A stretch of DNA of 64,000 nucleotides from Minisyncoccota bacterium (GCA_965222715.1 OZ244961.1:12172-76171); one strand, 5' to 3'. Positions 1,029-49,577 are shown, numbered from the stretch's first letter. Notes: a model not told the origin generated them from the letters alone. A program made the numbers and translations.

Positions 1029-1048
1029 CGCCAAGAGTACTCTTGGCG
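1029..1048 (+). terminator. Terminator, copy 1 of the palindrome CGCCAAGAGTACTCTTGGCG
   Basis: Read directly after the stop of ORF 11-1000. Confidence 0.6.
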
Positions 1049-1078
1049 TTTATTGTGGCTCTATTAAGGTATATAAAT

Positions 1079-1113
1079 ATTGACAAAAAATTAAAAACAA
1101 AGTATAATTTATA
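1079..1113 (+). promoter_or_regulatory. Near-consensus sigma70 promoter (TTGACA-17-TATAAT) upstream of ORF 1132
   Basis: ttgacaaaaaattaaaaacaaagtataat, read directly. Confidence 0.5.
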
Positions 1114-1131
1114 TACCTAGTTCTTTACGTA

Positions 1132-1752
1132 ATGGAGGTTGTAATGACCCTCTCCGAACTGTTGATTCTTGGATCAACGGGGCTGGTTGTTGCAACAACC
1201 GTCCTGTACATCCATTCAATCAATAATGCCAGTACCACACCAAGTATGTGGATGTGGTCAGTCCTCTTAACTCGTTCGGGTATCGATGCACTTGTCTATG
1301 CCGATTTAACTGACTGGGTACTCGCAGCTCCAAAGGTTGCAACAGTTTTGGGTATCAGTTGTGTTGTTTGGAAGGCTGTGCAGAAAAGCGAGGGGTGGCG
1401 TTTCCGAAAGAAAAATGATGCCTACGTTATGGCAATATCCTTCTTGGCATTGGGATTGTGGGGTTTTGGTTTTGTGGGACCTGGTTGGGGTAATGTTATT
1501 GTCCTGGTTGGGATGACGCTCGCATACATACCAAAATACTCTGCACTCTTTGATCTTGAAAGCAAGGAACATCCTCTTCCATGGACTTGCGCCACAGCTG
1601 TGAACTTCCTACTTTTTGTTGCTGTTGCGGTTAGTTCTCACACCACGAACTATTGGGCATACGTTGGTCCCATCGTGGGAACACTTCTCAATGCTATGGT
1701 GCTCATTCTTGAACTCCGTCGCAGAAGTAAACTCAGAGCTCGTCTCCTCTAA
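1132..1752 (+). CDS. hypothetical multi-pass membrane protein
   Basis: Long ORF with 5-6 hydrophobic segments; no motif recognised. Confidence 0.5.
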   Translation: MEVVMTLSELLILGSTGLVVATTVLYIHSINNASTTPSMWMWSVLLTRSGIDALVYADLTDWVLAAPKVATVLGISCVVWKAVQKSEGWRFRKKNDAYVMAISFLALGLWGFGFVGPGWGNVIVLVGMTLAYIPKYSALFDLESKEHPLPWTCATAVNFLLFVAVAVSSHTTNYWAYVGPIVGTLLNAMVLILELRRRSKLRARLL

Positions 1753-1781
1753 GGAAACGAGCTCATTTATTTATCAATATG

Positions 1782-3296
1782 TTATAAAAATTGCCGTGGT
1801 CTATATTGAAGCGCTTCAAGTATATGCTTTTCTTCAACTTCTACTGAGTCCTCGATATCAGCAATAGTGCGTCCAAGTTTTATTACTCGGTGATATGCAC
1901 GTGGTGAAAGGTCAAGTTTTGCCGCAGCGGTGTTCAGTGTATCACGCACAGCTTGAGAGAGTGTGACGTACTTACTTAAGTCGCGAACAGTCATCTCACT
2001 ATTTGTTTTGGATTGGTGTTTGAGCCGTTGGTGTTGTATTTCTCGCGCTTTCACAATCTTTTCTCGAAGAGTGTGTGATTCACGAGGGCGCTCTGTATTT
2101 CCTGAAAGACTCTTGTGATCAATGTGACCCACCTCAATCCACATATCAACTCTATCAATAATTGGTCCCGATATTTTCTTTTGAAATCTGCTTTGCTCAA
2201 GCCCATCAGTGCGTTCGGGTGGGTTCATTGCGGCAACTAAAATAAAATTTGCAGGAAATAGTGCTGAGCCTTTTGATCGAACAACACTTACTGCCCGCTC
2301 TTCAAGTGGTTGGCGTAGTGCTTCAATAGTGCGACGTTCAAATTCAGGGAACTCATCAAGGAAAAGTACCCCACGATGTGCAAGTGTTATCTCTCCTGGC
2401 TTTGGTACTGTTCCTCCACCAACAAGCGAAACGTATGAAGCGGTGTGGTGTGGTGCCCGGAACGGTGGGTGTGTTACTAGGGAGCTGTGTAGAGCACCAG
2501 CAATAGAGTGAATTGAGGTCACCTCAAGAATTTCTTCAAATAATAGAGGCGGCAGAATATTAGTGAATGCTCGCGCGAGCATCGTCTTCCCTGTTCCCGG
2601 TGGGCCGTAGAGGACAATATTATGTCTACCAGCTGCAGCAATAAGAAGACCTCGTTTTGCACTTTCTTGTCCTTGAATATCACCAAAGTCAATCAGGTTA
2701 TCAGGTTCAGTATAGACCACTTTTGTTTTAGGTTGGGGTAGTATACGAGCTTTTGACTCTTCCGACTCGGCGGTTTCTTTTTCATTAATGTGATTGAGTA
2801 CTTCAGACAGTGCTGATGCACCAAAAACCGTAATACCATCAATGAGAGCTGCTTCTTCGGCATTTTCATGTGGTACAAATGCGGTAGAAAAACCTTTTTC
2901 TACCGCTTTGCGGATAAGTGGGAGTATGCCATTAATTGGGCGAATCTCGCCATCAAGTGAGAGCTCTCCAAGAAACAAAATATTCTTTGGATCGAAAGCA
3001 ATTTCTTTTGTTGCAAGCAAATATGCAACAGCGATGCCCACGTCAAACGCTGGTCCTTCTTTCTTTAAATCAGCAGGAGCGAGAGAAATAACGACTTTCT
3101 GATTTTTTCCTTTGGGCGAGGTGTAGCCAGTGTTTTTAATTGCAGCAGATACCCGATCTCGCGACTCTTCAACTGCTTTGCCGGGAAGGCCGACAATAGA
3201 AAAAGCATGAAGTCCTTTCGACAAATCAACTTCTATATCAATAATATGAGCTTCAAGGAGTGTTGTTTGTGCGCTGTATACTTTAGCGAAGCTCAT
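1782..3296 (-). CDS. comM: YifB/ComM family Mg-chelatase-like AAA+ ATPase (Lon-like N-domain + AAA + ChlI C-domain)
   Basis: Walker A LYGPPGTGKTMLARA; Lon-like N-terminus; typical ComM length of about 500 aa. Confidence 0.85.
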   Translation of the reverse strand: MSFAKVYSAQTTLLEAHIIDIEVDLSKGLHAFSIVGLPGKAVEESRDRVSAAIKNTGYTSPKGKNQKVVISLAPADLKKEGPAFDVGIAVAYLLATKEIAFDPKNILFLGELSLDGEIRPINGILPLIRKAVEKGFSTAFVPHENAEEAALIDGITVFGASALSEVLNHINEKETAESEESKARILPQPKTKVVYTEPDNLIDFGDIQGQESAKRGLLIAAAGRHNIVLYGPPGTGKTMLARAFTNILPPLLFEEILEVTSIHSIAGALHSSLVTHPPFRAPHHTASYVSLVGGGTVPKPGEITLAHRGVLFLDEFPEFERRTIEALRQPLEERAVSVVRSKGSALFPANFILVAAMNPPERTDGLEQSRFQKKISGPIIDRVDMWIEVGHIDHKSLSGNTERPRESHTLREKIVKAREIQHQRLKHQSKTNSEMTVRDLSKYVTLSQAVRDTLNTAAAKLDLSPRAYHRVIKLGRTIADIEDSVEVEEKHILEALQYRPRQFL

Positions 3297-3311
3297 TCTT
3301 TATATTGGAGA

Positions 3312-3680
3312 CTACTTACTCTCCATGTGTTTTTTGCAGGTTGTTGCTGCAGGGTTCGCATTAAGTCGGTCTTCCTCAATTTCTTCACCACTCACTTCAC
3401 ATATGCCATACGTACCGTCCTCAATTCTCTTTAGTGCTGCTTTTACGTTGTTGTACCGCACTTCAAGGTCGCGAAGAATACTTGCATTTGATTCATACCC
3501 TTCAATTGCATCAGCTCGTTCGTTTGGATCAGCGTCTTGCACGTTCAAGTTGGCACCCTTTGCTTCCCAGTCCTCTGTTTCGCTATCAGGGTTACGTGTC
3601 GCAACTTTTTCAAGTTCACTGGTAAGAGTTTCTAATTCTTTCTCTAATTTTTCTTTATATTTTTCTGTGTCAATTGCCAT
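3312..3680 (-). CDS. DksA/TraR-family RNA polymerase-binding protein (degenerate zinc finger)
   Basis: Coiled-coil N-terminus; C-terminal ...RIEDGTYGICEVSGEEIEEDRLNANPAATTCKKH resembles the DksA C4 finger with only two Cys. Confidence 0.55.
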   Translation of the reverse strand: MAIDTEKYKEKLEKELETLTSELEKVATRNPDSETEDWEAKGANLNVQDADPNERADAIEGYESNASILRDLEVRYNNVKAALKRIEDGTYGICEVSGEEIEEDRLNANPAATTCKKHMESK

Positions 3681-3713
3681 ATAGCTATAGTATACCCGAG
3701 TGTCGAGAGGACA

Positions 3714-4736
3714 TCAAAATACTCTCACTGTATTCATTCGGGTGATAATCTCAACAAGAGTGTTTTCATTGGTGGTTATGATGAGCATCTGCTGGTTAGG
3801 AAACGCGTAGAGTAGTTCGATATCACCCTCTTCGTTAGTAAGTACTCGCGCGTCTATATTTCGTACTACTTTATCTATAAATGATTTTGTAAATAAATCG
3901 CTTGAGTCAACATTTTCCTCTGTTACATTTCGTTTCATAAACAAAAAGAGGTCGCTGTAGATAGCATTTTCCCATTCAAGCATTCCGGCAAAACTGTTTT
4001 GATACGAGTTTGAGATAAAAATAAGAAATGGTTGGTTTTGATTAAAAACATGCACACCAAACATAAAGTCGTCTCGTAGTGAACGTAGAAACGAGTCGTC
4101 TACTGATGCATCAATGGATTCAAGAAATGCTCGAGCGGTAAGCAGCGTGGCTGTACTCGTTGGTGTTTGCTTTTCTGTAATATAGAAATGCATTACCTCG
4201 CTCAGTGGCAGTGAAACACCCACCCGAGCCTGCCAAAGTTTTTGGAGTACATTTCGTGGTTGAGTGTTAGTTATATCAATCTCTTGTTGCTCTTCAGAAA
4301 AAATAAGTGAAGGGACTTCTTGTTCAACAGCAACTTCTTTCTCGCCTTCGTATATAAATAAAAAGTATGAAATAACCCCTACTCCCACAAGAAGTAAGAG
4401 AACACTAAGCCCCACAAGCACTATTTTCTTCACATCAAGGTGAGACGTTTCCCCACCCATATCCTTGGGGAGTCTAGTTCGACGTCGTTCTTCTGCAGCA
4501 GTAACGCTAGTAAGGGATGCTTTTTGGTTTTGTATTGCTCGAGCAAGATCTTCTTTGTAGGTTCGGACTCTCTGCACAATACCACCCTCTTCTTTTTGTT
4601 GAGGTGTTGTTTGAGGAGTCTCTGTGTTTTCTGTGCTCTCGTTGGGTAGTGCTTTTTCTTTATTTTCTTCTCCGTCCATGGTGGGTCTATTGTACCACGA
4701 TGCATAAGTACCTAAATATGTAGGTGCAGATATCAA
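3714..4736 (-). CDS. hypothetical single-pass membrane-anchored protein
   Basis: One TM segment (IVLVGLSVLLLLVGVGVISYFLFI); no recognisable domain. Confidence 0.45.
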   Translation of the reverse strand: MISAPTYLGTYASWYNRPTMDGEENKEKALPNESTENTETPQTTPQQKEEGGIVQRVRTYKEDLARAIQNQKASLTSVTAAEERRRTRLPKDMGGETSHLDVKKIVLVGLSVLLLLVGVGVISYFLFIYEGEKEVAVEQEVPSLIFSEEQQEIDITNTQPRNVLQKLWQARVGVSLPLSEVMHFYITEKQTPTSTATLLTARAFLESIDASVDDSFLRSLRDDFMFGVHVFNQNQPFLIFISNSYQNSFAGMLEWENAIYSDLFLFMKRNVTEENVDSSDLFTKSFIDKVVRNIDARVLTNEEGDIELLYAFPNQQMLIITTNENTLVEIITRMNTVRVF

Positions 4737-4791
4737 GAAAAGAAATTACAGGAGAAACAAAAAACCACCTCGTGGGTGGTCTTTTGTGTAT

Positions 4792-5328: not shown

Positions 5329-5479
5329 ACTATGTTATGAGAAATTATGTACTGAATGTCAGTACTACTTATAAAAAATGCTCACGAAAGAACTGTACCC
5401 TCTCTGTATCATACTATAAAAAGAAAAAATGTGCGCCTCACACATAATCCTACATCTAGCGGTGTAGAGATCCTCTGGA

Positions 5480-5746: not shown

Positions 5747-5919
5747 TGACCAAAGCATAGCACAGTTGTGCGGTTTTTGCAAGTTTTTCTGTATTCACTA
5801 CCATTTCCCTAAAATACCGCACAAACACATTATACGACGCGAAGATCATCGCATAATGTCAAAATATTGTGCAACATTAAAGTGTCGCACAATATTTTGG
5901 TATACTACTCATTACTAGT

Positions 5920-6822
5920 ATGGCAGGCAATCTAAAAACACTAAAACAAGAGTTTCTTGAGTATCTTGAAATAGAACGTGGGCGCGCGCTTAAGACAGTT
6001 GAAAACTATGATCGGTATCTCACTCGATTTCTTGATTTCTCCAAAGCAAAACAATCGAATGACATCACTGAAGAGAAGGTTCGTAAGTTTCGATTAGAAT
6101 TGAATCGCTCGGGCCTCAATCGAAGAACTCAAAACTATTACCTCATTGCACTCAGACAATTTTTAAAATTTCTCTTGAAACGAGGACATAAAACACTTGC
6201 GCCGGATACTATTGAACTTGCAAAAGAAACCCAGCGTGACATCTCACTTATCTCCCCCACTGAACTCAAACGACTACTCGAAGCACCAGAAGGAAATGAC
6301 GAGAAGTCTCTTCGCGATCGCGCAATACTCAACCTTCTCTTTTCAACTGGCCTTCGTGTTTCTGAACTTTGTGCACTTTCTCGGTATCTTGATTGGAATC
6401 GAGATGAAATAGCGGTCCGTGGGAAAGGTGGTAAGGTGCGTCCAGTATTCATCTCACCTCGTGCAAAAGAAACAATAAAAAAGTATCTCTCTAAACGAAA
6501 AGATACTGACGAAGCATTATTTGTCCATTTTGGTCGTGGAGCAAAACGCGCTGAGAGTGCTGATGGGTCGCGTGCACTTTCACCGAGAAGTGTCGAGCGT
6601 TTAGTGAAACACTATGCAGTGAAAGCGGGTATTGATAAACGTGTTACACCACATACCCTCAGACACTCATTTGCAACTGATTTATTACAAAATGGCGCTG
6701 ACCTGCGTTCTGTTCAGGCACTCCTTGGACATGCACACATTGGCACAACACAAGTCTACACACACGTAACTGATAAACATTTACATGATATTCATAAAAA
6801 GTTTCATGGGAAAGGTCAGTAG
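5920..6822 (+). CDS. tyrosine site-specific recombinase, XerC/XerD family
   Basis: C-terminal catalytic box LRHSFATDLLQNGADLRSVQALLGHAHIGTTQVYTHV (R..HxxR..Y). Confidence 0.85.
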   Translation: MAGNLKTLKQEFLEYLEIERGRALKTVENYDRYLTRFLDFSKAKQSNDITEEKVRKFRLELNRSGLNRRTQNYYLIALRQFLKFLLKRGHKTLAPDTIELAKETQRDISLISPTELKRLLEAPEGNDEKSLRDRAILNLLFSTGLRVSELCALSRYLDWNRDEIAVRGKGGKVRPVFISPRAKETIKKYLSKRKDTDEALFVHFGRGAKRAESADGSRALSPRSVERLVKHYAVKAGIDKRVTPHTLRHSFATDLLQNGADLRSVQALLGHAHIGTTQVYTHVTDKHLHDIHKKFHGKGQ

Positions 6823-12374: not shown

Positions 12375-12377
12375 TGG

Positions 12378-12415
12378 TAAAACAAAAACGGCTCACACGA
12401 GCCGTTTTTGTTTTG
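12378..12415 (+). terminator. Rho-independent terminator AAAACGGCTC-acac-GAGCCGTTTT
   Basis: Perfect 10-bp stem flanked by A- and T-runs. Confidence 0.6.
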
Positions 12416-12684
12416 CTACTTTCTCTAGCGAGGATTCGAACGGAACTTTTGCGCCGAAGGAATAAGCAAAAGTCCGTGGCTCTGGAGGAGTATTGCGAGT
12501 GTATTGTGAACACCTGGAACAATACGAGCAATGCGGAGGAAGAGGAATCCTGGTAGGAGGTACTTAACGAATCAGAGCACGGAGTGCGAATGATGAGTTT
12601 AGTAACCTGACGCCTTGTGCCTAGTAACCATGGTTATAACTCGTGACCGAACCCTGGCATATCAAGGCCACACTACCTCATTTG
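12416..12684 (+). ncRNA. candidate structured ncRNA of unknown class (RNase P-like CR-I/CR-V-like motifs; possible reduced rnpB)
   Basis: 270-nt ORF-free stretch between two tRNAs; AAAGTCCGTGGCTC and GAACCCTGGCATATC resemble RNase P P4-flanking strands; several local hairpins. Confidence 0.3.
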
Positions 12685-12755: not shown

Positions 12756-12758
12756 ATT

Positions 12759-13445
12759 CTACATACCAGATTTTAGTATAAATCCAGGTAAAAGGTCCAG
12801 CCATATTAACATCTTCTCTTTTAAATACCTACTTGAAACCACAAGTGTACACGTACCATACGGTAGACGTCTTGTTTTATGCTTACTAGGCAAAATCATA
12901 GTTTTTGTAAAGTGTTGTAAACCTGTTTCTTTTGACCAAAATATGCGACATTCTTCCTCATTCAAATCTGGGTAGATGAACAAAGCTCCCTTTATTCTAT
13001 TTTCAGGGAAATTACAGATTTCTATAAGAAATTTGAAGAAAATACTAATCATACCAGGATCTGTGTTAGTAATACGCACCAGGTGTTTTGACCGTTTGTC
13101 TCCCTCACCCCAGTACGCAGCAATTGCAAAGATGAAGAGAGGATCTTTTTTAAACTGATTAAACTCAGTCATGGCTTCTTGTCGTGCAATCTCATATTCT
13201 TTTTTCAGCTTCTCACCTCGAATTTTATTCAAGTTTTTTATGCGTATTCTGTGTTCAATGCGAGCAATTTTTAAATTTCGTTCAGTAATCTTCTTTGACC
13301 ACTTCTTCTTCTGTAACCAACCTGACAAGGTGCTTTTTGGCACCCCTAGCTCTTTATGTATCTCATTAAAAGACTTTCCTTTTTTCCTAAGCTCAAACGC
13401 TTTTTGTTTGTCTGATCTCATATTTACTACATTAGCATAAAACAT
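12759..13445 (-). CDS. hypothetical protein with N-terminal IS630/Psq-like HTH; possible decayed mobile-element protein
   Basis: KGKSFNEIHKELGVPKSTLSGWLQK HTH; C-terminal domain unassigned (IAAYWGEGDK only vaguely LAGLIDADG-like); abuts tRNA-Gly. Confidence 0.45.
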   Translation of the reverse strand: MFYANVVNMRSDKQKAFELRKKGKSFNEIHKELGVPKSTLSGWLQKKKWSKKITERNLKIARIEHRIRIKNLNKIRGEKLKKEYEIARQEAMTEFNQFKKDPLFIFAIAAYWGEGDKRSKHLVRITNTDPGMISIFFKFLIEICNFPENRIKGALFIYPDLNEEECRIFWSKETGLQHFTKTMILPSKHKTRRLPYGTCTLVVSSRYLKEKMLIWLDLLPGFILKSGM

Positions 13446-13771
13446 GAGTTCGGATTACTCGTCTAAAGGACATACATCACTGCTCTTTAGTATTGAAAAA
13501 CACTCTACCCGTCAAAGCTTTGTAATAGCTTTATAAAAAGCCATATTATAAAAAATATGTTAATTTCTGGGGATAGTGGTGTGAATAGCATAAATTAAAG
13601 GACATTTTATAACGTGTCTTTTACAAAAATACGGCTTTTTAAAGCCATATTTTTGTGTCTTTAATTCTTTAATGACTTATACACAGAAAATGTTTCACGT
13701 GAAACATTAAGTATGTATTCATTGTATGTTACACGTGGAACACAAACTAGTTTTGGTGTATACTTACTGGC

Positions 13772-14371
13772 ATGAATATTCATAATCTCCTTGATTTCAT
13801 CTCACTCACTATCAAATTTCGTGATGTTGAACGAAAAATATACGCCACAGGGACTACTCGAAACGAAAATGATGCAGAACACAGCTACCAACTCGCTATG
13901 CTTGCTTGGTACATACTTTCACAGGGTAATTATTCTTTAGATCTACACAAGGTCTTACGTTACGCACTCATCCATGATTTTGTGGAAGTATATGCTGGAG
14001 ATGCATGGTTTTACCGCTCAAAAGAAGAATCACGGAAGAAAGAAGCACTTGAGGCAGAATCTGCACAGCGTCTCCAAAAAGAATTCCCTGAATTTACTGA
14101 TTTTCATGAGACAATAGCTGACTACGAAAAACGCCAAGATCCAGAAAGTCGCTTTGTATACGCATTAGATAAACTTATTCCAATTCTCAATGTATATCTT
14201 GACGGTGGTAAGAATTGGAAAAAACACGGTGTTACTTTCGATGCTCTTCTCGAGGCCAAAACATCGAAGATTAAAGTATCTCCTGAAGTAGAGCCATTTT
14301 ATCAAGAACTACTCAGTATTTTAAAGGAACATAAAGATATGTTTCATGTGGAACATACTAAAGAAAAGTAG
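13772..14371 (+). CDS. HD-domain phosphohydrolase (YfbR-like 5'-deoxynucleotidase family)
   Basis: NDAEHSYQLAMLA ... LIHDFVEVYAGD (H..HD..D metal ligands). Confidence 0.75.
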   Translation: MNIHNLLDFISLTIKFRDVERKIYATGTTRNENDAEHSYQLAMLAWYILSQGNYSLDLHKVLRYALIHDFVEVYAGDAWFYRSKEESRKKEALEAESAQRLQKEFPEFTDFHETIADYEKRQDPESRFVYALDKLIPILNVYLDGGKNWKKHGVTFDALLEAKTSKIKVSPEVEPFYQELLSILKEHKDMFHVEHTKEK

Positions 14372-17936: not shown

Positions 17937-18019
17937 TTTCAACTCTCTTTAACACACAACCCCCGCGATTGCGGGGGTTGTGTGTTTTTGGTACGATTAC
18001 ATTCGTTCTATAAAAACTT

Positions 18020-18143: not shown

Positions 18144-18191
18144 CTTAACACTCGAGGGCAAGCAGGAAAAACAGTGCTTAAGCACTGTTTT

Positions 18192-18216
18192 TCAGAATTC
18201 GATTCTCTCTACCCGC
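18192..18216 (+). pseudogene. tRNA 3'-end fragment (T-loop TTCGATT + acceptor 3' strand TACCCGC) complementary to the 18020 fragment
   Basis: GAATTCGATTCTCTCTACCCGCACC; TACCCGC pairs perfectly with GCGGGTA of the upstream fragment. Confidence 0.55.
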
Positions 18217-18388
18217 ACCTGTAACACACAAAACTGCAAAAACACCAGACCTAGGTCTGGTGTTTTGCGTATAAATACAAGGTTTCTATAACTACCACAC
18301 TAAAATTGACAACACAGCTTTTAAATGATATAAACTAGTTAGTTTCAACCGTTCTTACACACAACAGCGTATATTTGGAGGGTTTCTC

Positions 18389-19171: not shown

Positions 19172-19284
19172 CCACTGTTTCCATTCACACCCCCGGACAC
19201 TACTCCGGGGGTTCTCTTTTGTATATACACCACCACTAAAAAACACCACAAGTACTTGTGGTGTTTTTTAGGTAGTGTAAAAGA

Positions 19285-27660: not shown

Positions 27661-29456
27661 TTGGTATACTTAGTGTACTCAAGATGCTCACCTTATATGT
27701 ACATTCACGAAAAACAATTAAAAGAGTTTGTACTTGACTCAGGACTCGTATCAAAAGCGACATTTGAGGCTGCTGAAAAGCGTGCACAAGAAAAAAATAT
27801 ATCAGTGAGTGATGCGTTGGTTCAAAGTGGCGATATTACACAAGATGATTTGCGAAGAACGCAAGCCTACATCCTCGGCATTCCTTTCGTGAGTCTCGAA
27901 GGGAAAAAGATTGATCCTGAAGTACTCTCTCTTGTCCCTGAACCAATTGCGCGAAACCATAATATTATTGCCTACAAGAAGGGTGACGACAGTCTAGAGG
28001 TTGCCATGCTCAACACTGACGACCTTACGGCAATTGATTTTGTAAAGAAAAAAGTACGACTCAAAATTCTCCCTCGGCTCACCGACGATGCGTCAATTAA
28101 ATCAGCGCTTAAGCAGTACCAAAAGAGTCTCAAAGATGAGTTTGGTGAGATTATTCGTCGAGAAACCGCTTCACTTAAAGGTGCTCCAGAAAGTGATGAG
28201 ATATCAAGTGAGGACCTTAAGCGCCTTGCGGAAGATTTGCCGGTGGTGCGTATCGTTGATTCACTTCTTCGTCACGCTATTAATCAAAACGCCTCAGATA
28301 TACATATTGAACCAATGGAGAATCAAGTGTTGGTGCGGTACCGTATCGACGGAATTTTACATGATGCGATGACGCTCCCTAAGAGTGCCGCATCATCAAT
28401 TACTGCGAGAGTAAAAGTACTTTCAAACCTAAAGCTTGATGAAAAACGGCTTCCCCAAGACGGTCGTTTTAAGATGGAATCAGGAAGTGAACGTGTATCA
28501 TTTCGCGTCTCAGTACTGCCAACGTATTTTGGTGAAAAGACAGTAATGCGACTACTTCAATGCGACTACTTCGTGAAAACATCTCAGGCTTTACTTTGGA
28601 AGGCCTTGGTTTTCATGGGGACGGGCTTGAGCGAATACATAAAGCAACACGACAGAAAACAGGAATGATACTCACCACAGGGCCAACTGGTTCTGGTAAG
28701 ACCACAACGCTCTATACTATTTTAGATATTCTTAATACTCCTGACGTAAATATTTCAACAGTTGAAGACCCGATTGAGTATCAAATGCAACGGGTCAATC
28801 AAACACAGGTAAAACCAGATATTGGATTTACTTTTGCAAAAGGTCTTCGTGCGCTCGTGCGGCAAGACCCCGATATTATTATGGTTGGTGAGATTCGTGA
28901 CAATGAAACCGCGGCGCTTGCGGTAAACGCAGCGCTCACTGGCCACTTAGTGCTCTCAACACTCCACACCAACTCTGCGGCAGGAGCAATTCCACGACTT
29001 CTTGATATGGAAGCGGAACCGTTCTTGCTTGTTTCAACCATTGACGTGGTTATTGGACAGCGTTTGGTACGAAAATTGTGTGAAGAAAAAGAAGAGTATC
29101 TTCTGACGCCACCAGAAATAGAAAAGTTACGTAAAATTGTAGATCTCGATAGGGTGCTTACAGTTCTTAAAAGTGAAAATGTTGTATCAGACGATGCAAC
29201 GTGGGAAAACATTCCTTTATATAAAGAAAAACCGTCGCAAGAATGTGAAGACGGGTTCTCGGGTAGAGTTGGTATTCATGAAATACTTACCATATCTGAC
29301 ACAATTAAAGATTTAATCATGAAGGGTGCAACTTCTGAAGACATTGAAGATCAGGCAAAAAAAGAAGGTATGATGTCGATGATTGAAGACGGGATTTTTA
29401 AAGCAGTGCAAGGCGTGACTACTGTTGAAGAAGTACTCCGCGTTGTTTCTGAATAG
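27661..29456 (+). pseudogene. pilB: type IV pilus assembly ATPase PilB/GspE, reading frame broken by a 14-bp tandem duplication (two ORFs 27661-28668 and 28560-29456)
   Basis: N-terminal GspE_N domain in frame 1; Walker A TGPTGSGKTT and the rest of the ATPase in frame 2; perfect direct repeat ATGCGACTACTTC(a/g) at 28546-28573. Confidence 0.75.
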
Positions 29457-29459: not shown

Positions 29460-30674
29460 ATGAAACAGTTTTCGTATACAGCAAAAAATAAAGATGGAGA
29501 AGAGTACAAAGGTACTGCGTCAGTCGCAGATAAGTTTGAGTTGTATAAAAAAATAAAAGAAGAAGGGGGAGTTGTTATTGAAGTTGCGGAAGCTGGTGGT
29601 TCATTCTTTTCAATAGATCGTTTCAATCAAATCTTTGGAGCAGTGAAGGAACATGAGAAAGTGGTCTTTACTCGAAACCTTGGTGCAATGATAGAAGCTG
29701 GACTCTCACTTTCTCGAGCACTTTCAGTTCTTGAGCGTCAAACAAAAAATCCAAAACTCAAACTCGTACTTGCTGAAATTAACGACGAGGTGCGTAAAGG
29801 TGGTAATTTTCACACTGCACTTAAAAAGTTTCCAAAAATATTTTCACCACTCTTTGTCTCGATGGTACACGCTGGAGAGGAGAGTGGTAAATTATCTGAC
29901 GCACTTACATTAGTTGGTAGTCAGCTTGAGCGAAGTTATACGCTCAAAAAGAAGATAAAAGGTGCGCTCATCTACCCAGGGATCATTCTCATAGCAATGG
30001 TGATTATCAGTATCCTGATGTTGGTCTATGTGGTACCAACATTAACGCAAACGTTTGAAGAGCTCGGTGCAGAATTGCCGAAAAGTACGCAGGGTATCAT
30101 TACGGTGAGTAAGTTTTTAACAGAAAACACCCTTATTGCACTCCTTATCCCGTTAGTGATATTTGGTGTCTTCTATCTTATTGGTCGACGAAAAGAAGGA
30201 AAGAAGGCCTTTTACTACATACTGCTACATCTGCCAATCATTGGTCCATTGAATAAAGAAATTCAAGCAGCCCGAACTGCTCGTACACTCTCATCATTAC
30301 TCTCCTCTGGTGTTGAAATTATACAGGCAATCAGCATTACTTCTGAGGTTTTACAAAACCCGTACTACCACGCAGTACTTGAACGAGCACAAGAAGATGT
30401 GCAAAAGGGTTCACCGCTTTCAGGGGCGTTTACTGAAAACGAACACCTCTATCCAATTCTTGTTGGGGAGATGGTCTCTGTTGGAGAGGAGACAGGAAAA
30501 CTTCCTCAAATGCTCTTGCGGGTAGCTGAGTTCTACGAAACAGAGGTTGAGCAAAAGACAAAAGATATGTCTACCGTTATAGAACCATTCCTCATGATTC
30601 TCATCGGTGCCTTTGTTGGATTCTTTGCACTCTCTATGATTGCACCAATCTACTCACTCTCTGACAGTATTTAA
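29460..30674 (+). CDS. pilC: type IV pilus inner-membrane platform protein PilC/GspF
   Basis: Two GspF repeats and 3 TM segments; directly follows pilB. Confidence 0.85.
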   Translation: MKQFSYTAKNKDGEEYKGTASVADKFELYKKIKEEGGVVIEVAEAGGSFFSIDRFNQIFGAVKEHEKVVFTRNLGAMIEAGLSLSRALSVLERQTKNPKLKLVLAEINDEVRKGGNFHTALKKFPKIFSPLFVSMVHAGEESGKLSDALTLVGSQLERSYTLKKKIKGALIYPGIILIAMVIISILMLVYVVPTLTQTFEELGAELPKSTQGIITVSKFLTENTLIALLIPLVIFGVFYLIGRRKEGKKAFYYILLHLPIIGPLNKEIQAARTARTLSSLLSSGVEIIQAISITSEVLQNPYYHAVLERAQEDVQKGSPLSGAFTENEHLYPILVGEMVSVGEETGKLPQMLLRVAEFYETEVEQKTKDMSTVIEPFLMILIGAFVGFFALSMIAPIYSLSDSI

Positions 30675-32034: not shown

Positions 32035-32640
32035 ATGCAGTACAAAAACACTAAGAACGGATTTACGATTATTGAAGTGCTCGTTGTGCTTGCTATTTTT
32101 GTTGTCATTCTGGGTGCGCTGGTTGGATCACTCCGCTACTTCTACCGATCAAACACAACTGCTATTGAACAATCGTTTGCGGTTCAGAGTGCACGTCGAG
32201 GAATTGAAAATATCGCAACTGATATACGTGAGGCAACATATTCAGATGAAGGATCTTACCCAGTTATTTCAATGGCAACATCTTCATTTAGTTTCTACAG
32301 TGATATAGACTCAGATATTTTTATTGAGAAGGTTCGCTACTTTCTTGATGGGACAGATGTAAAGCGTGGGGTGATTGACTCTTCTGGTGACCCACGAACG
32401 TATGATGATAATAATGAAGTAGTATCAATAATTTCTGAAAACGTACGAAATGCTTCAGAGAGTACTGATATTTTTACGTACTACGATACGAACGGATCGG
32501 TAATTACTAGCACAGCAAGCACAACAAACGTTCGTTTTGTTGATATTAATATTATTGTAAATACTACACCCGCGCGTGGATTAAATAACTTCACTCTTAA
32601 TACGAGCGCAACACTGAGGAACGTGCGAAACGAAGATTAA
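32035..32640 (+). CDS. type IV pilin / pseudopilin (N-terminus KNGFTIIEVLVVLAIF)
   Basis: Canonical G|FTxIE prepilin cleavage/methylation motif. Confidence 0.7.
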   Translation: MQYKNTKNGFTIIEVLVVLAIFVVILGALVGSLRYFYRSNTTAIEQSFAVQSARRGIENIATDIREATYSDEGSYPVISMATSSFSFYSDIDSDIFIEKVRYFLDGTDVKRGVIDSSGDPRTYDDNNEVVSIISENVRNASESTDIFTYYDTNGSVITSTASTTNVRFVDINIIVNTTPARGLNNFTLNTSATLRNVRNED

Positions 32641-39599: not shown

Positions 39600-40028
39600 A
39601 TGCAAAAAATAACTATCTACACAGACGGTGGATCTCGAAACAACCCAGGACCAGCAGGTGCAGGAGTAGTTATTGTTGATGAAAATGAAAAAGTGTTGAA
39701 AGAAGCATCAAAGTACTTAGGTGAACGTACCAACAATTGGGCAGAATACGAAGCAGTCATTCTTGGGTTTGAGGAAGCAAAGAAACTTGGGTTAAAAGAG
39801 CGAGACATTGAATTTAAACTCGATAGTCAGCTGGTTGCTGAACAACTTTCAGGAAACTATCAAATAAAAGAACCAACCCTCTTTGAGCAATTTGTGAAGG
39901 TACACAATTTTCAAGTAAAAGATTTTAAACACATAACCTTCAACTACATACCGCGGGAAGAAAATACAGCAGCTGATCGCTTAGCAAACGAAGCAATGGA
40001 TAGAGGAATGAGTGGAAGTCATGAGTGA
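39600..40028 (+). CDS. rnhA: ribonuclease HI
   Basis: ITIYTDGGSRNNPGPAGAG ... NNWAEYEA ... catalytic DEDD pattern. Confidence 0.8.
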   Translation: MQKITIYTDGGSRNNPGPAGAGVVIVDENEKVLKEASKYLGERTNNWAEYEAVILGFEEAKKLGLKERDIEFKLDSQLVAEQLSGNYQIKEPTLFEQFVKVHNFQVKDFKHITFNYIPREENTAADRLANEAMDRGMSGSHE

Positions 40029-41497
40029 TGTACAATTTTCTCTACATTAGTATTATAAGTTTCACCTTTGGAGTGCTCTGGCGCTCCTTTTTTGATTATG
40101 GAGTGACCTTTTCTCTTTTTATACTACTACTGAGTGTTTCCGTATTCTCTATTCTTCTTTTTTCAAAAGAAAAGAGACACATTCTCTATATTGGAATAAG
40201 TATTCTTTTCTTTGGTTGTGGAGTTTTGCGACTTGAAATAGCTGAGATACACCAAGGTAGTGAATTATTTAGAGAATCTATTGACGTCTCAGTAACTCTT
40301 CAAGGTGTGGTTGTTGATGAGCCAGATGTACGTGAGACAAATACTAACTATACAGTTTTAGTTGACTCATTTTCGGACACTTCTGTATCAGAGAAGGTGC
40401 GTGTTATAGCAGAGTCGTACCCACGATTTCGCTACGGTGATCGTGTCACAATTGTAGGTGAGTTACTACAACCACAAGGGTTTGAAACGGATACTGGACG
40501 ATATTTTGATTATGCTGCATTTCTCTCAAAAGATGACATTTTCTACCAGATGCTGTTCCCCGAACTCACGTACGTGAGTTCGGGTGAGGGAAATCCAATT
40601 AAACAAACACTTTTTACTTTTAAGAATGCATTTCTTTCGCGTATACAAGTTCTCATCCCTGATCCACAGGCCTCACTTCTTGGCGGATTAGTTGTTGGCG
40701 CAAAACAGTCTCTTGGAGAAGAATTACAAGATGACTTTCGCGCGACCGGTATTATCCATATTGTGGTGCTTTCTGGATATAACGTCACCATTGTTGCTGA
40801 AGCAATTATGCGAACGTTTGCATTTTTACCGCAAGCAATCGGTATGTCACTCGGTGCTGGTGCGATTGTGCTCTTTGCGATAATGACCGGAGCGAGTGCG
40901 ACTATTGTGCGCGCAAGTATTATGGCACTTCTCGTTATTGTTGCTCGGGCAACAGGACGAACGTATGCAATTACTCGGGCACTTTTTATTGCAGGGTTTA
41001 TCATGATTCTTCATAACCCAAAAATTTTAGTACACGATGCGTCCTTTCAACTTTCCTTTCTTGCTACACTTGGGTTGATTTGGCTTGCCCCACTTATTGA
41101 GAGGAAGCTCGGCTTCATTCCAGGTAAGTTTCAGTTCAGAGAGTTTGCAACGGCAACAATTGCCACACAGATTTTTGTGCTTCCACTGCTCCTGTATAAG
41201 ATTGGCGAACTCTCCCTTGTCGCAGTTCCTGTGAACCTACTGGTACTTATTGTAGTGCCGATCACCATGCTTATTGGTTTTCTTGCAGGCATTCTTGGTT
41301 TTCTAAGCGCTGTACTTGCACTCCCATTTGCATACTTCGCACATTTTTTACTAAGTTACCAGCTCACTGTAGTTGATTGGTTTGCCCGCCTCCCGTTTGC
41401 ATCAGTGCAAATTGACACCTTCCCGTTATGGTTAATGGTCGGATTATACTTGTTTTACGGATTAGTCTTATTCAAGTTATATAAAAAGCCCCAATAA
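40025..41497 (+). CDS. comEC: ComEC/Rec2 DNA-uptake channel, membrane portion only (DUF4131 + competence domain)
   Basis: N-terminal OB-like region then multi-TM competence domain; no C-terminal beta-lactamase domain in this ORF. Confidence 0.75.
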   Translation: MMYNFLYISIISFTFGVLWRSFFDYGVTFSLFILLLSVSVFSILLFSKEKRHILYIGISILFFGCGVLRLEIAEIHQGSELFRESIDVSVTLQGVVVDEPDVRETNTNYTVLVDSFSDTSVSEKVRVIAESYPRFRYGDRVTIVGELLQPQGFETDTGRYFDYAAFLSKDDIFYQMLFPELTYVSSGEGNPIKQTLFTFKNAFLSRIQVLIPDPQASLLGGLVVGAKQSLGEELQDDFRATGIIHIVVLSGYNVTIVAEAIMRTFAFLPQAIGMSLGAGAIVLFAIMTGASATIVRASIMALLVIVARATGRTYAITRALFIAGFIMILHNPKILVHDASFQLSFLATLGLIWLAPLIERKLGFIPGKFQFREFATATIATQIFVLPLLLYKIGELSLVAVPVNLLVLIVVPITMLIGFLAGILGFLSAVLALPFAYFAHFLLSYQLTVVDWFARLPFASVQIDTFPLWLMVGLYLFYGLVLFKLYKKPQ

Positions 41498-41501
41498 AAA
41501 A

Positions 41502-41521
41502 CGCCAAGAGTACTCTTGGCG
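41502..41521. terminator. Bidirectional terminator, copy 2 of the repeated palindrome CGCCAAGAGTACTCTTGGCG
   Basis: Perfect 20-nt palindrome flanked by A6/T6 between convergent comEC and sod. Confidence 0.65.
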
Positions 41522-41544
41522 TTTTTTGTCGCTTATATAGTGAG

Positions 41545-42135
41545 TTATTTTGCTTCAGTAAATCGTTTCTCAACAACACTCCAATTGAGATTATTGAGAA
41601 ATGCGTCAATATACTGCCCTTTTTCTGCTGGGGTGTAGTCCACCATAAAGGCGTGCTCCCACATATCCATCGCAATAAGGATTGGAAGTCCAGCAAGTGT
41701 GCCGAGCTCATGATCACCGACCCAAGTGACATGCGGCGTTTGACCTTTTGGATCGAAGTAGAGAACCGTCCAACCAATACCACGGCTTGTGCCTACTGCT
41801 TTAAAGTGAGAAATAAAATCTTCATAGCTTCCATACTTCTCTGCGAGTACCTTTTTTAGATCCCCTTCGCTTAGTGGTGTTGCGTCACCCTCAAGCCCTT
41901 CAAAGTAGTACTCGTGCATACGCATGCCGTCGAACTCAAAACTAAACCGTCGACGCAATTCAGTAATTGCATACGCATTTCCTTCCTTATCAGCTGACTC
42001 AAGTTGTGCAATTTTCTCGCGTACAACGTTTACGTGCTTTACGTACCCTTTATAGAGCCCAAGGTGCACTTCAATTTGTTTCTCAGAGAGACCTTCAAGC
42101 TTCCCAAGATTAAATGTTTGTTCTTTATATTCCAT
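41545..42135 (-). CDS. Fe/Mn superoxide dismutase
   Basis: DMWEHAF..DY motif and N-terminal His ligands. Confidence 0.85.
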   Translation of the reverse strand: MEYKEQTFNLGKLEGLSEKQIEVHLGLYKGYVKHVNVVREKIAQLESADKEGNAYAITELRRRFSFEFDGMRMHEYYFEGLEGDATPLSEGDLKKVLAEKYGSYEDFISHFKAVGTSRGIGWTVLYFDPKGQTPHVTWVGDHELGTLAGLPILIAMDMWEHAFMVDYTPAEKGQYIDAFLNNLNWSVVEKRFTEAK

Positions 42136-44484: not shown

Positions 44485-44553
44485 ATCATTATGGTTTAAA
44501 CTCAAACGCCCAGCAGCTGCTGGGCGTTCCTATTCTACTTCACTAAGATAGAT

Positions 44554-44796: not shown

Positions 44797-44837
44797 ATGT
44801 CTTTAGTGCGAGCTATGGTACCATTGTGGCACGTACT

Positions 44838-45485: not shown

Positions 45486-45559
45486 TCATAAGCTTAAGAG
45501 TTTGCATTTTTGGGGCGAGTAGAGTACAGTAGTGCCCATACGCTTCGTGCGTATTTTTT

Positions 45560-45973
45560 ATGGCAACAATTAATCAGTTAGTACGAAAAGGACGAAAGAA
45601 TCCAGTCACCAAGCCAAAGGCGGTGGCTCTTCAACGTGGTTTCAATACTTTAAAGAACCGTCCAACACGATACCCATCACCATTTAAACGTGGCGTGTGT
45701 ACTAAGGTGACAACAAAGACTCCGCGTAAGCCAAACTCAGCTATTCGAAAGATTGCTCGTGTTCGTCTTACTAATGGTATGGAAGTAACCGCCTACATTC
45801 CAGGAATGGGACACAATCTTCAGGAGCACTCAGTAGTACTCCTTCGTGGTGGACGTGTGAAAGATATTAACGTTCGCTACACCATCGTTCGCGGTAAGCT
45901 TGATACTGAAGGTGTAAACAATCGAAAGAAGAGTCGAAGTCGATACGGAACAAAGAAAGATGGTAAGAAATAG
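45560..45973 (+). CDS. rpsL: 30S ribosomal protein S12
   Basis: Conserved S12 sequence (PKKPNSA(I/L)RK, TPKKPNS). Confidence 0.9.
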
Positions 45974-45981
45974 AATAATCT

Positions 45982-46443
45982 ATGCGACGACCACTTAAGA
46001 AAAAGCACGAACTCACACCAGACTTCACATATGACTCAGTGAAGGTGACTAAGTTCATCAACTACATCATGGAGCGCGGTAAGAAAAATACTGCGCGGGA
46101 AATTGTATATAAAACATTTACTGAGCTTAAAAAGAAAGGGGACCCAATTGAAATTTTTGAAACAGCACTCCGCAACGTTGAGCCAGCAATGGAGGTACGT
46201 TCACGTCGTGTTGGTGGTGCAAACTATCAGGTGCCACGAGAAATTCGTGCAGAGCGACGTCTTTCACTTGCAATGCGATGGATTATCCAAGCGGCAAAAG
46301 CACGAAAGGGAATGCCAATGCATAAGCGACTTGCTGAAGAACTCGCTCTTGCAGCAAACAAAGAGGGTGAAGCAGTGAAGAAACGAGAGAATGTACACAA
46401 GATGGCAGAAGCAAACAAAGCATTCGCGCACTTTGCATGGTAA
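45982..46443 (+). CDS. rpsG: 30S ribosomal protein S7
   Basis: S7 motifs; position after rpsL. Confidence 0.9.
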   Translation: MRRPLKKKHELTPDFTYDSVKVTKFINYIMERGKKNTAREIVYKTFTELKKKGDPIEIFETALRNVEPAMEVRSRRVGGANYQVPREIRAERRLSLAMRWIIQAAKARKGMPMHKRLAEELALAANKEGEAVKKRENVHKMAEANKAFAHFAW

Positions 46444-46529
46444 GTTCTCACTGCTAGTAATATAGATATAAATGTGATACTAAGGACTCAGGTGAAACTG
46501 AGTCCTTTGGCGTTGTAAGGAGGATCAGA

Positions 46530-47168
46530 ATGCGAATTGTTATTCTCGCACTCCTGCTTGTATGCGTTGGGTGCGCAAATCGAGAAGAACCACCCGCAAC
46601 AAGTTCGTTTCCGGGTGATGAAATAGCAATCTCACGAGACTGCATGCCAGAGATTCTCCCTGGTCGTACGGTTGAAGCTCAAGAATATGAGCCAATCATT
46701 CGCTTCGTCCACGAGTTGTCGTCACGTATCTTTTCATGCGACTACTACGAAGGTGAGCCAGTGCGCTTCTTTGGAAAGACCGTCAAAATAAAAGGAAGGC
46801 CGGTACGTTCAGGTTATGGCCTGGCCATTGCTGATCATGCGTCCATTGTTCATGAACTCTTCTCTGTGGCAAACTTCCGTATCCAGTATGACGAACTTAA
46901 ATTTAAATTGCGGATACAACAGAAGTGGGTTCATACAACATATGGTGGAGTTGAGAGAAGTCATTTGGTGTACATTGTGGAAGCAAGAAAACAATTTATA
47001 CCGTGGCAGACAATTGGTGCACTAACCACGCTCGACTTTTCAGTACGCCAGGACAAATACACTGCTTTCCTGTGGGTCCAGGGTCTCGGGCTTTCGGATG
47101 AAGAGATTGTAAACCGATTCCGAACGCTGAGTGCATTTTTGGTACCAACGGAGGTAGCTCAGCCTTAA
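46530..47168 (+). CDS. hypothetical putative lipoprotein, GC-rich, inserted between rpsG and fusA
   Basis: Signal peptide with Cys (LLLVCVGCANRE); own RBS AAGGAGG; own terminator at 47185-47215. Confidence 0.5.
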   Translation: MRIVILALLLVCVGCANREEPPATSSFPGDEIAISRDCMPEILPGRTVEAQEYEPIIRFVHELSSRIFSCDYYEGEPVRFFGKTVKIKGRPVRSGYGLAIADHASIVHELFSVANFRIQYDELKFKLRIQQKWVHTTYGGVERSHLVYIVEARKQFIPWQTIGALTTLDFSVRQDKYTAFLWVQGLGLSDEEIVNRFRTLSAFLVPTEVAQP

Positions 47169-47333
47169 CTTTTCTTACGACTTGACCCTCGCTGTTGTGG
47201 CGAGGGTTTCTCTTTACTCTAACTTTGCGTTAACTTGTCTGAGTAATAGTATTGTTGCAATTTTTACCTGTTCCCCGTATAGTAGTGGCACGCCGAAGGC
47301 GTTTTATTTTTGTAATACACAGTTAGTAACTAT

Positions 47334-49526
47334 ATGGCACAAGAACTTCCCCTAGAAAAAGTCCGCAACTTTGGAATTGTTGCGCACGTTGACGCAGGAA
47401 AGACCACCACGTCTGAGCGTATTTTGTATTACACGGGGCAGAGCCATAAAATTGGTGAGGTGCATGACGGAGAGACCACTACTGACTGGATGGAGCAGGA
47501 GCGAGAGCGCGGTATCACTATTACCGCAGCTGCGATTACCTGTTTCTGGACACCAATGTATGACCGTTTAGGGGATGATGGCAAGGTTGCTGCAAGTACG
47601 AAGGAGGACCCAACCAAGCATCGTTTTAATATTATTGACACCCCTGGTCACATCGACTTTACCTCAGAGGTACAGCGTTCAATGCGCGTGCTCGACGGTG
47701 CAGTTGTCGTGTTTGATGGTGTTGCGGGTGTTGAGCCTCAGTCTGAAACTAACTGGCGATATGCAGAAGAGGCATCAGTACCACGACTCTGTTTTATAAA
47801 TAAGCTTGACCGGACCGGTGCAAGTTTTGAGCGTTCATTTGCAAGTATTCTTGAGCGATTGAGTAAAGATGCAGTTCGCGTACAGCTCCCTATTGGAGAA
47901 GAAGATGCACATGAGGGAGTTATTGATCTTCTTACACGAAAGGTATACCACTCAGAAGGAAATCTTGGAGAAGAGGTAGTTGTCTCTGATGATATTCCTG
48001 AGAATCTTAAAGCCGATGTTGAGAAGTACCGAAATGAACTTATCGAAAAAATTGTTGAGCAAGACGAAACAGCAATGGAGAAGTATCTTGAAGGAGAGGA
48101 ACCAAGTCTTGAGGAACTCAAGAAATTGATGCGTAAAGGAGTAATCGCAAACAAGATCTTCCCTGTCTTTACTGGTTCAGCACTTAAAAACAAGGGAGTG
48201 CAAAACATTCTTGATGCAGTGGTTGACTACCTTCCATCACCACTTGATATGCCACCAGCAAAAGGATTGAAGCCTGGAACTGAAGAGGTGATCGAGCGAA
48301 AGGCGTCAGAAGATGAGCCATTTGCTGCCCTTGTCTTTAAACTCCAGACTGACCCATTCGTAGGGCAACTCTCATTCTTCCGTGTGTACTCTGGTGTCAT
48401 TAAAGCGGGAAGCACTGTGCTAAATGCAACCACAGGAAATAAAGAACGTGTCGGACGAATTGTACGACTGCAGGCTGATAAGCGAGAAGAAATTCAAGAA
48501 GTGCGAGCTGGAGAAATTGCAGCAGCGGTGGGTATGAAAGAAGCAAAGATTGGTCAAACACTCTGCGACCCAGCGCACCCAATTGAGCTTGAGAAGATTG
48601 AATTCCGTCTTCCAGTTATTTCAATGCGTATTGAACCTAAAACAAAAGCAGACCAAGAGAAGCTTGGTGTTGCGCTATCAAAACTTTCAGACGAAGACCC
48701 AACCTTCCGTGTTGAAAGTGATGATGAAACAGGTGACACTATTATTTCAGGTATGGGTGAGCTTCACCTCGACATCCTTGTTGATCGTATGAAGCGAGAG
48801 TTTGGCGTTGAAGCAAACACTGGTCAACCGCAGGTAGCGTATCGTGAGACGATTCAAGGAGAAGCTGAAGCAGAAAATAAATACATTAAGCAAACAGGTG
48901 GTCGTGGACAGTACGGACACACCAAGATTCGTATCAAACCACTCGGAGACTTACCAGAAGACGAGAAAGAGCGAGAAAAATACCTTAAGAATGTTGAGCG
49001 AGAGGATCATTTTGAATTCGTTAACTCAATTAAAGGAGGGGTGATTCCAGCAGAATATATTCCAGCAGTACGAAAAGGTGTAAAAGAAGCAATGGAGCGA
49101 GGAATTGTTGCTGGGTACCCACTCGTTGATGTTTCAGTTGAGCTCTATGACGGTTCATACCACGATGTTGACTCATCTGAAGTTGCCTTTAAAATCTCAG
49201 GCTCTCAAGCATTTCAAGATGCAGCAAAACGAGCGCGCCCAACACTCCTTGAACCAGTTATGCGTGTTGAGATAGTGGTACCTGAGAAGTTTATGGGTGA
49301 CATCAACGGAAACATTAGCTCAAAACGTGGCCAAGTGGAGAGTATGGACGATCGAACAGGAGGGCTCAAGGTGATTCACGCGAAAGTGCCGCTTGCTGAA
49401 ATGTTTGGCTATACCACAACCCTCCGCTCAATGACTGAAGGGCGAGGCAATATGGTCATGGAGTTCGACTCATACGCAGTCGTTCCACAGAATGTTGCAC
49501 AAGATATTGTGAACGCACGAAGCTAG
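47334..49526 (+). CDS. fusA: elongation factor G
   Basis: G-domain motifs [21 protein letters not shown]; full length. Confidence 0.9.
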
Positions 49527-49557
49527 TCTTTGTATAAGTCTTTAGCTAGGTAAAAAA

Positions 49558-49577
49558 ACGCCAAGAGTACTCTTGGC
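49558..49577 (+). terminator. Terminator, copy 3 of the palindrome CGCCAAGAGTACTCTTGGCG with A7/T7 flanks
   Basis: Read directly. Confidence 0.65.

Follow-up and report, generated by a model that had tools for sequence, protein, structure and literature searches.

A palindromic terminator-type hairpin repeated exactly at three gene ends of a Paceibacteria sequence and present once in a distant relative

Short dispersed palindromes that double as transcription terminators are known from proteobacteria, in the form of repetitive extragenic palindromic (REP) elements and of paired DNA uptake sequences or uptake signal sequences (DUS/USS). In the REPs of Enterobacteria, Pseudomonas and Stenotrophomonas (SMAG), the palindrome is imperfect and a 5′ tetranucleotide is conserved; these elements are found by the hundreds, frequently clustered, and are associated with RAYT transposases. 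Miniature inverted-repeat transposable elements (MITEs), like Correia, RUP or Nezha, measure about 50–500 bp, possess internal sequence, target-site duplications and related insertion sequences (IS), and can carry terminators. The genomes of Patescibacteria, or candidate phyla radiation (CPR), are tiny and repeat-poor, and these organisms are thought to depend on DNA uptake. The present analysis deals with a 26-nt palindrome, the element, which occurs in three exact copies at gene ends within 64,000 nucleotides of a Minisyncoccota bacterium (GCA_965222715.1 OZ244961.1:12172-76171), a stretch referred to as a whole as the window.

In Neisseria, complementary DUS copies a short distance apart are contained in about 55% of the high-confidence terminators (Kingsford et al., 2007, PMC1852404), while uptake sequences in general number about 1,000 or more per genome, many of them present as single copies (PMC1852404). 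Ordinary terminators evolve by compensatory substitutions, as described in a B. cereus study (PMC5381666), and REPs are treated as elements of 3′ untranslated regions (3′UTRs) in a recent preprint (bioRxiv 10.64898/2026.03.23.713779).

The three-copy repeat in the window is real. Exact matching of the 20-nt core CGCCAAGAGTACTCTTGGCG resulted in three hits, at 1029-1048, 41502-41521 and 49559-49578. A preceding interpretation made by a model from the nucleotide sequence alone, in the following called the sequence-only reading, had reported these exact copies at three distant gene ends, with the third one placed one base off at 49558-49577. No further match to the core was detected in the window at up to 3 mismatches, and none occurred in 100 dinucleotide-preserving shuffles of it. 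By alignment of the copies with 70 nt on either side, an invariant unit of 26 nt, AAACGCCAAGAGTACTCTTGGCGTTT (AAACGCC..GGCGTTT), with constant AAA/TTT flanks was identified, outside of which the sequences are unrelated; the AAACG...CGTTT and A/T-run flanks and the unit of about 26–34 nt given by the sequence-only reading were borne out as 26–32 nt. The window contains no second dispersed repeat of comparable type, as judged by an all-against-all search for exact repeats (16 nt or longer). The ScaI-type site AGTACT pointed out earlier is indeed located inside the core, but it is unremarkable among the 40 AGTACT sites of the window, and avoidance of this restriction site was rejected on the same count. 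The copies are as follows:

1021-1056, copy 1, 36-nt perfect palindrome ACAATAAACGCCAAGAGTACTCTTGGCGTTTATTGT, core 1029-1048, flank subtype AATAAA..TTTATT, the same as in locus L001 of a distant relative
41494-41529, copy 2, with the 32-nt perfect palindrome AAAAAACGCCAAGAGTACTCTTGGCGTTTTTT at 41496-41527, core 41502-41521
49550-49587, copy 3, with the 34-nt perfect palindrome AAAAAAACGCCAAGAGTACTCTTGGCGTTTTTTT at 49552-49585, core 49559-49578

All copies have a 5′ A-tract and a 3′ T-tract and are located 0–23 nt after a stop codon, and a promoter-like site is found downstream of copies 1 and 3. The stem consists of 8 bp (CGCCAAGA/UCUUGGCG) with five G-C pairs, closed by a GUAC loop and extended by A-U pairing between the A- and T-tracts on either side, and it can be formed from either strand. 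It is followed by the U-rich tracts TTTATTGT (copy 1), TTTTTTGT (copy 2), TTTTTTAT (copy 2, − strand) and TTTTTTTG (copy 3). The predicted RNA hairpins range from −20.4 to −25.1 kcal/mol with z-scores from −6.1 to −7.1, and 0 of 200 shuffles folded as well; individually, the values are −23.7 kcal/mol (z −7.1) for copy 1, −20.8 on the + strand and −20.4 kcal/mol on the − strand (z about −6.5) for copy 2, and −25.1 kcal/mol (z −6.1) for copy 3. Copy 2, a symmetric A-tract/T-tract hairpin between convergent genes with a T-run on both strands, is placed as a bidirectional terminator. A search against Rfam returned no family at gathering score, the sub-threshold matches being just to the terminator ends of small RNA models. 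Judged by fold energies, U-tracts and placement after stop codons, which support the earlier description as terminator-type hairpins, the three copies are very probably bidirectional Rho-independent (intrinsic) terminators.

The genes adjacent to the copies, whose contexts as given before could be confirmed by domain assignment of the open reading frames (ORFs), are:

11-1000, + strand, gene for a LysM and Peptidase_M23 protein, ending at copy 1
1132-1752, orphan gene for a multi-pass membrane protein of 206 aa, downstream of copy 1
40025-41497, + strand, comEC (DUF4131 and Competence domains), ending at copy 2
41545-42135, − strand, Fe/Mn superoxide dismutase gene (sod), ending at copy 2 from the opposite side
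47334-49526, + strand, fusA (EF-G, 730 aa), ending at copy 3

Copy 1 starts 20 nt past the stop codon of the peptidase gene and ends 24 nt ahead of a perfect 12/12 sigma-70 consensus promoter, TTGACA-17-TATAAT, at 1080-1108, which precedes the orphan gene. No homologue of the orphan protein other than itself was found among 5.8 billion proteins, and its gene shows no compositional anomaly. Copy 2 occupies most of the 47-nt spacer between the convergent stop codons; that of comEC (41495-41497) overlaps the A-tract, and that of sod is 15 nt away. Copy 3 starts 23 nt past the fusA stop codon (49524-49526), and about 30 nt separate its end from the promoter-like site of tuf at 49618-49646, tuf itself being located downstream at 49783.

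Hairpins of this style are common in the window, which also encodes nusA. Terminator-like sites are about twofold enriched over shuffles throughout (32/25/28 observed vs 16.5/14.6/17.5 expected), and ten perfect palindromes of at least 18 nt were counted vs about 0.5 expected, mostly intergenic and of the A-tract/stem/T-tract type. About 25 long symmetric hairpins of this type are located at gene ends; only the 26-nt element is repeated and the rest are unique. Examples of perfect-palindrome terminator-like hairpins are those at 12377-12416, 17951-17986, 18166-18193, 18239-18266, 19236-19271 and 51546-51585. In the source genome and its relatives, terminator-like hairpins are very often perfect DNA palindromes with a self-complementary 4-nt centre (GTAC, TTAA, CTAG), which suggests a symmetrising process at the DNA level or a tolerance of long palindromes. 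One 26-nt perfect palindrome, CCCGAACTCACGTACGTGAGTTCGGG at 40559-40584, lies within the comEC coding region.

The source organism is a member of the Paceibacteria/Patescibacteria, and its EF-G relatives carry the names Paceibacterota, Pacebacteria or Kaiserbacteria. For the closer relatives, collected via EF-G clusters, the EF-G identity to the window amounts to 95% for L009 (over 330 aa), 92% for L002, 91% for L008 and 85% for L003-7; for the distant L001 it is 72%. Orthologous sites were compared for the comEC/sod and fusA-tuf spacers, that is, for copies 2 and 3; the spacer of copy 1 is not comparable across relatives because the orphan gene on its other side has no other homologues. In five loci the fusA-tuf spacers were aligned and are orthologous; the tuf promoter and leader are kept in all five, L001 included. 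A stop-proximal TTTGTAT is common to the window, L001 and L009 only.

Within this conserved frame the hairpin slot varies between relatives. It holds no hairpin in L009, the different hairpins GACCTCATAGTATATGAGGTC and AAAAAACACCAACCTGCAGGTTGGTGTTTTTT in L008 and L002, and yet other hairpins in L014, L036 and L043, whereas L013 and L042 have look-alikes after fusA with two or three mirrored differences. The comEC/sod hairpins of L002, L003 and L008 all differ from copy 2. The comparison of orthologous intergenic regions proposed by the sequence-only reading therefore gave hairpins that differ or are absent in the closest relatives (EF-G 91–95%). In L001, however, the spacer between fusA and tuf contains 32 nt identical to the window element (AATAAACGCC..GGCGTTTATT), and this copy matches the flank subtype of copy 1, not that of the orthologous copy 3. 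In the same slot, the strains of L001's own clade, L010-12 (EF-G 99% identical to that of L001), have a perfect palindrome of 60 nt with another sequence. Among all loci compared, the 26-nt element is the only non-coding hairpin common to different clades. Since some strong hairpin is present in nearly every relative, the fusA-tuf spacer is a terminator position and not an element-specific target; the earlier suggestion of the fusA 3′ end as a target is weak for this reason.

Because relatives with 91–95% EF-G identity differ at the slot while L001 with 72% is identical, the hairpin turnover is faster than species divergence. With a sequence turning over at such a rate, the four exactly identical occurrences must stem from recent copying within the source genome and transfer between lineages, not from descent or chance.

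Outside these loci the element is rare. When 185,579 species, each represented by one genome, were scanned with a 24-mer, the single locus L001 was obtained, with one copy in the whole metagenome-assembled genome (MAG). The exact 20-mer had 0 matches in the JGI metagenomes and in IMG/VR, and a degenerate pattern had 0 matches in IMG/VR. BLASTN of the 32-mer against phages and plasmids returned just chance matches of 17–18 nt and no mobile-genome or vector source. A degenerate scan of metagenomes with AAAC-N-CCA-NNN-GTAC-NNN-TGG-N-GTTT yielded 21 matches, 11 of them perfect palindromes, in organisms with a G + C content of 0.29–0.57, which suggests that the AAAC..GTAC..GTTT design is a common solution in unrelated organisms; all of the matches differ from the element at the variable positions. 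One hairpin of the window could be a diverged relative:

19236-19271, 36-nt perfect palindrome CTAAAAAACACCACAAGTACTTGTGGTGTTTTTTAG, three differences per arm, all mirrored, between a 260-aa ORF (+ strand, ends 19171) and the HU gene (− strand, ends 19285)

In the look-alikes of L002, L042, L013 and L034, too, every difference from the element is mirrored. Homology of this hairpin and of these look-alikes to the element is not inferable, because a stem identity of 5–6/9 is common among unrelated hairpins of the compared loci and because the design recurs.

On balance, we favour the view that the element is a dispersed terminator repeat which was copied recently within and between genomes. The RNA hairpin and U-run, formed from either strand, would terminate the transcripts of the M23 peptidase gene, comEC, sod and fusA, with the one hairpin of copy 2 serving both convergent genes and that of copy 3 acting before tuf, which has a promoter of its own. 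One such sequence would have been copied into other terminator positions of the source genome, giving rise to a low-copy dispersed repeat family, and would also have crossed lineage boundaries. As a route, offered only tentatively, the upper part of a resident A-tract/T-tract hairpin could be replaced by ectopic conversion or template switching via the common A/T-tract bases, with DNA uptake by the competence machinery (ComEC, type IV pilus) and frequent recombination supplying the foreign donor sequence; a dedicated transposase would not be required.

Several observations bear on this route. Beyond the 26-nt unit, the flanks continue as locus-specific inverted repeats, ACAAT/ATTGT for copy 1 and CACTAAT/ATTAGTG for L001, which is compatible with the element having been inserted into a symmetric hairpin already in place, or having taken over the upper part of one. 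The window encodes ComEC, PilB/PilC-type genes and a prepilin-like gene, the latter assigned by an N-terminal methylation motif only. A comparison of fusA between L001 (1-2000) and L010 (10169-12145), whose EF-G proteins are 99% identical, revealed a mosaic at the DNA level, in which a tract of 1,025 nt at 100% is preceded by a stretch of 94–95% identity and followed by one of 85–91%; this is evidence of recent homologous recombination between lineages. Remnants of the fusA 3′ end of about 35 nt were found about 100 nt past the true stop codon in L010 (12120-12265) and L036 (5120-5255), and also in L011, L012, L037 and L041; remnant and real 3′ end are separated by an insert with a common TGCCCCGTA, and the remnants are a footprint of insertion or illegitimate recombination at the fusA 3′ end. 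As a side observation, the PilB-type T2SSE ATPase is split into overlapping ORFs (27661-28668, MshEN and T2SSE positions 3-115; 28560-29456, T2SSE 109-370), a frameshift, pseudogene or sequencing error, and is adjoined by a T2SSF gene (29460-30674) and the prepilin-like gene (32035-32640).

A number of points weigh against the favoured view. Termination itself is a prediction from sequence. Copies 1 and 3 are as symmetric as copy 2 but are located between co-directional genes, where bidirectional symmetry is unneeded. The term low-copy is an extrapolation from 64 kb, and the single foreign copy known, L001, is located in a MAG. To our knowledge, ectopic hairpin replacement is undocumented in these organisms. 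Furthermore, homologous recombination alone cannot give an identity of only 32 nt with unrelated flanks, so that a small mobile unit would account for the cross-lineage copy no less well. A bolder version, which we consider rather doubtful, is that of a portable terminator, a perfectly palindromic non-coding unit of 26–32 bp that places copies of itself at terminator positions in Paceibacteria genomes and jumps between distant lineages; its movement could proceed by natural transformation and hairpin-templated insertion, or by a hairpin-specific enzyme.

The main rival is a non-autonomous REP/MITE-like element whose palindrome of 26–32 bp would be recognised as a DNA hairpin and mobilised in trans by a transposase with its gene in another part of the genome (e.g., RAYT or an IS200/IS605-type Y1 enzyme), the element preferring A/T-rich gene ends and doubling as a terminator, which would account for exact extragenic palindromes at the 3′ ends of three unlinked genes, as for REPs, for the identical 32 nt in the distant L001 that are absent from its 99%-related strains, and for the orthologous sites of close relatives being without the element. 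We consider it unlikely, though still worth serious attention. No target-site duplication flanks any copy, so that the check for such direct repeats suggested by the sequence-only reading came out negative, and no larger element or internal sequence surrounds the copies, their flanks being the locus-specific inverted repeats described above. A TGTAT repeat around copy 3, apparent in comparison to the hairpin-less L009, was rejected as a target-site duplication, since the segment missing there comprises about 75 nt, not the palindrome, and TTTGTAT is kept in L001; the gap in L009 is likelier a microhomology deletion. Among the approximately 50 ORFs of the window that were scanned, there is no transposase, Y1_Tnp or RAYT, the sole recombinase seen being a Xer-type tyrosine recombinase at 5920-6822 (Phage_integrase and SAM-like N domain). 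REPs typically number in the hundreds, whereas the element is present once in the L001 MAG and absent from the other species representatives, the JGI metagenomes and IMG/VR, and its palindrome is perfect, lacking the imperfect stem and 5′ tetranucleotide of REPs. Of the earlier classification as a dispersed REP/MITE-like mini-element, the idea of a dispersed mini-element gains some support from the L001 copy and its absence from near-identical strains; the REP and MITE labels are not supported, given the missing duplications, larger element and transposase or RAYT, and the one copy in L001. A second proposal takes the 10–12-nt arm as an uptake signal for ComEC and the type IV pilus, of which inverted pairs were co-opted as terminators. 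It draws on the ComEC and pilus genes of the window, the Neisseria precedent of DUS within terminators (PMC1852404), the occurrence of one sequence in separate lineages and the recombination mosaic in fusA. It is largely refuted by the half-site counts and very improbable: single arms occur at chance level (13-mer with up to 2 mismatches, four outside palindromes vs 2.07 expected; 10-mer with up to 1 mismatch, three vs 3.0), while known DUS reach about 1,000 or more per genome, many of them single (PMC1852404). Moreover, just 3 of about 25 terminator-like hairpins carry the arm, no further 8–12-mer except A-rich words is over-represented in the window, and close relatives are without the element.

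An operator, in which the 20-bp palindrome is bound by a dimeric regulator of the downstream promoters of the orphan gene and tuf, would suit the perfect dyad, the exact conservation typical of protein sites and the location of copies 1 and 3 and of the L001 copy 20–40 nt upstream of a −35 box. This, too, has a very low probability, as copy 2 lies between convergent stop codons with no promoter, the dyad centre varies in its spacing from the promoter (about −72, −76 and −84 for copy 1, copy 3 and the L001 copy), the A/T-tract flanks and the post-stop position are terminator traits, and the tuf promoter and leader, but not the palindrome, are retained in the closest relatives. Coincidence, convergence or plain vertical conservation of one optimal hairpin at the three sites and in L001 is less probable again, although the general form recurs in unrelated metagenomic organisms (the 21 matches mentioned above) and similar variants follow fusA in L013 and L042. 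For the exact identity, coincidence is refuted statistically: the shuffles contained no match, the metagenomic look-alikes all differ at variable positions, and the identity spans 26–32 nt including loop and A/T flanks. That relatives with 91–95% EF-G identity differ completely while one with 72% is identical is the reverse of descent. The premise that independent terminators rarely share a stem-loop held up as well, with about 25 other window hairpins unique and the orthologous hairpins of relatives different. Finally, the window derives from a metagenome-type assembly, its relatives being named as MAGs, so an assembly artefact or chimera was considered; its probability is close to negligible, as the flanks of every copy are unique and run without a break into intact gene ends and promoters, at least ten independent assemblies show the same gene order comEC-sod-...-rpsL-rpsG-fusA-tuf, and a repeat of 26–36 nt is shorter than the sequencing read length.

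Other structures were observed along the way. The tuf 5′ leader, downstream of the tuf promoter, contains a small hairpin with a U-run (49656-49690) and a long hairpin (49706-49767) with the invariant apical GTTCTCG(T/C)GC. The long hairpin is kept in 11 Paceibacteria loci, and nine of its 22 predicted pairs show compensatory changes; no Rfam family matched the leader structures, and the long hairpin is a candidate for an uncharacterised cis-regulatory leader of tuf. At 52410-52448, a non-coding stretch of 35–39 nt that precedes the ribosomal protein genes on the rplC side is shared without change by L008 and L014; it is probably a conserved promoter or leader. In the spacer between the ORFs 12759-13445 (− strand) and 13772-14371 (+ strand), with four tRNA genes nearby, AATGTTTCACGTGAAACATT is located at 13689-13708; it contains a perfect match to TGTTNCACGTGAAACA, the consensus of the ParB-binding site parS. 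In L010, the 24-nt palindrome AATAGTTCGGTTAACCGAACTATT occurs twice (1777-1806 and 2227-2250), on either side of a small gene of the Trp_repressor family that is inserted between recJ and the gene for RNase H, and may represent an operator pair or a small cassette.

In a literature search, no short dispersed palindromic terminator repeat was found to be described in Patescibacteria/CPR, and neither palindromic repeats nor terminators of Patescibacteria, nor SRP128015, turned up in it. If the element truly moves within and between lineages, even regulatory punctuation would be exchanged horizontally in these organisms, and a simple sequence tag would be at hand for tracing recombination among uncultured lineages. 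If the unit were in fact portable, terminators would constitute a horizontally exchanged, fast-turning part of reduced genomes. If only three local copies exist, the repeat is a minor curiosity. The cross-lineage identity is intriguing, with the copies seen being few, the foreign locus a single MAG locus and the mechanism a proposal drawn from sequence comparison. In practical terms, the element offers a candidate part for compact bidirectional termination.

In comparison with known systems, the copies resemble bidirectional Rho-independent terminators in their G + C-rich stem, short loop and U-run on both strands directly past stop codons; copy 2 would serve two convergent genes, and many other hairpins of the window share the same design. 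Ordinary terminators, however, are each unique, whereas here one sequence occurs in three exact copies and a fourth in another lineage, and the hairpins of the element are perfect DNA palindromes including the loop. With REP/RAYT systems, the element shares the character of a short repeated extragenic palindrome at gene 3′ ends that is able to act on 3′UTRs (see the preprint mentioned above) or termination. It differs from them in being perfect, in occurring as single isolated copies, three in 64 kb and one in the L001 MAG, and in the lack of a RAYT in the window.

The DUS/USS of Neisseria and Pasteurellaceae are the closest literature precedent for identical terminator stems. There, one sequence is likewise reused, as inverted pairs, in many terminator stems of naturally competent organisms (PMC1852404), and ComEC and pilus genes are present here, a likeness that is not diagnostic, since ordinary terminators share the feature. 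Unlike them, the element shows no single-arm excess in or outside genes, is found in about 1 in 8 terminator-like hairpins and has a roughly 100-fold lower density. With MITEs it has in common that it is non-coding, repeated and of terminal inverted symmetry, but it has no internal sequence, no target-site duplication, no related IS in the window and no phage, plasmid or IMG/VR match. Identity with integron attC, Xer dif or parS was rejected, as the element fits neither the R″/R′ cores of attC, nor the 28-mer of dif, nor parS TGTTNCACGTGAAACA. While membership of a known family is unproven, the element resembles a bidirectional intrinsic terminator in function and a small dispersed repeat of the REP type in behaviour.

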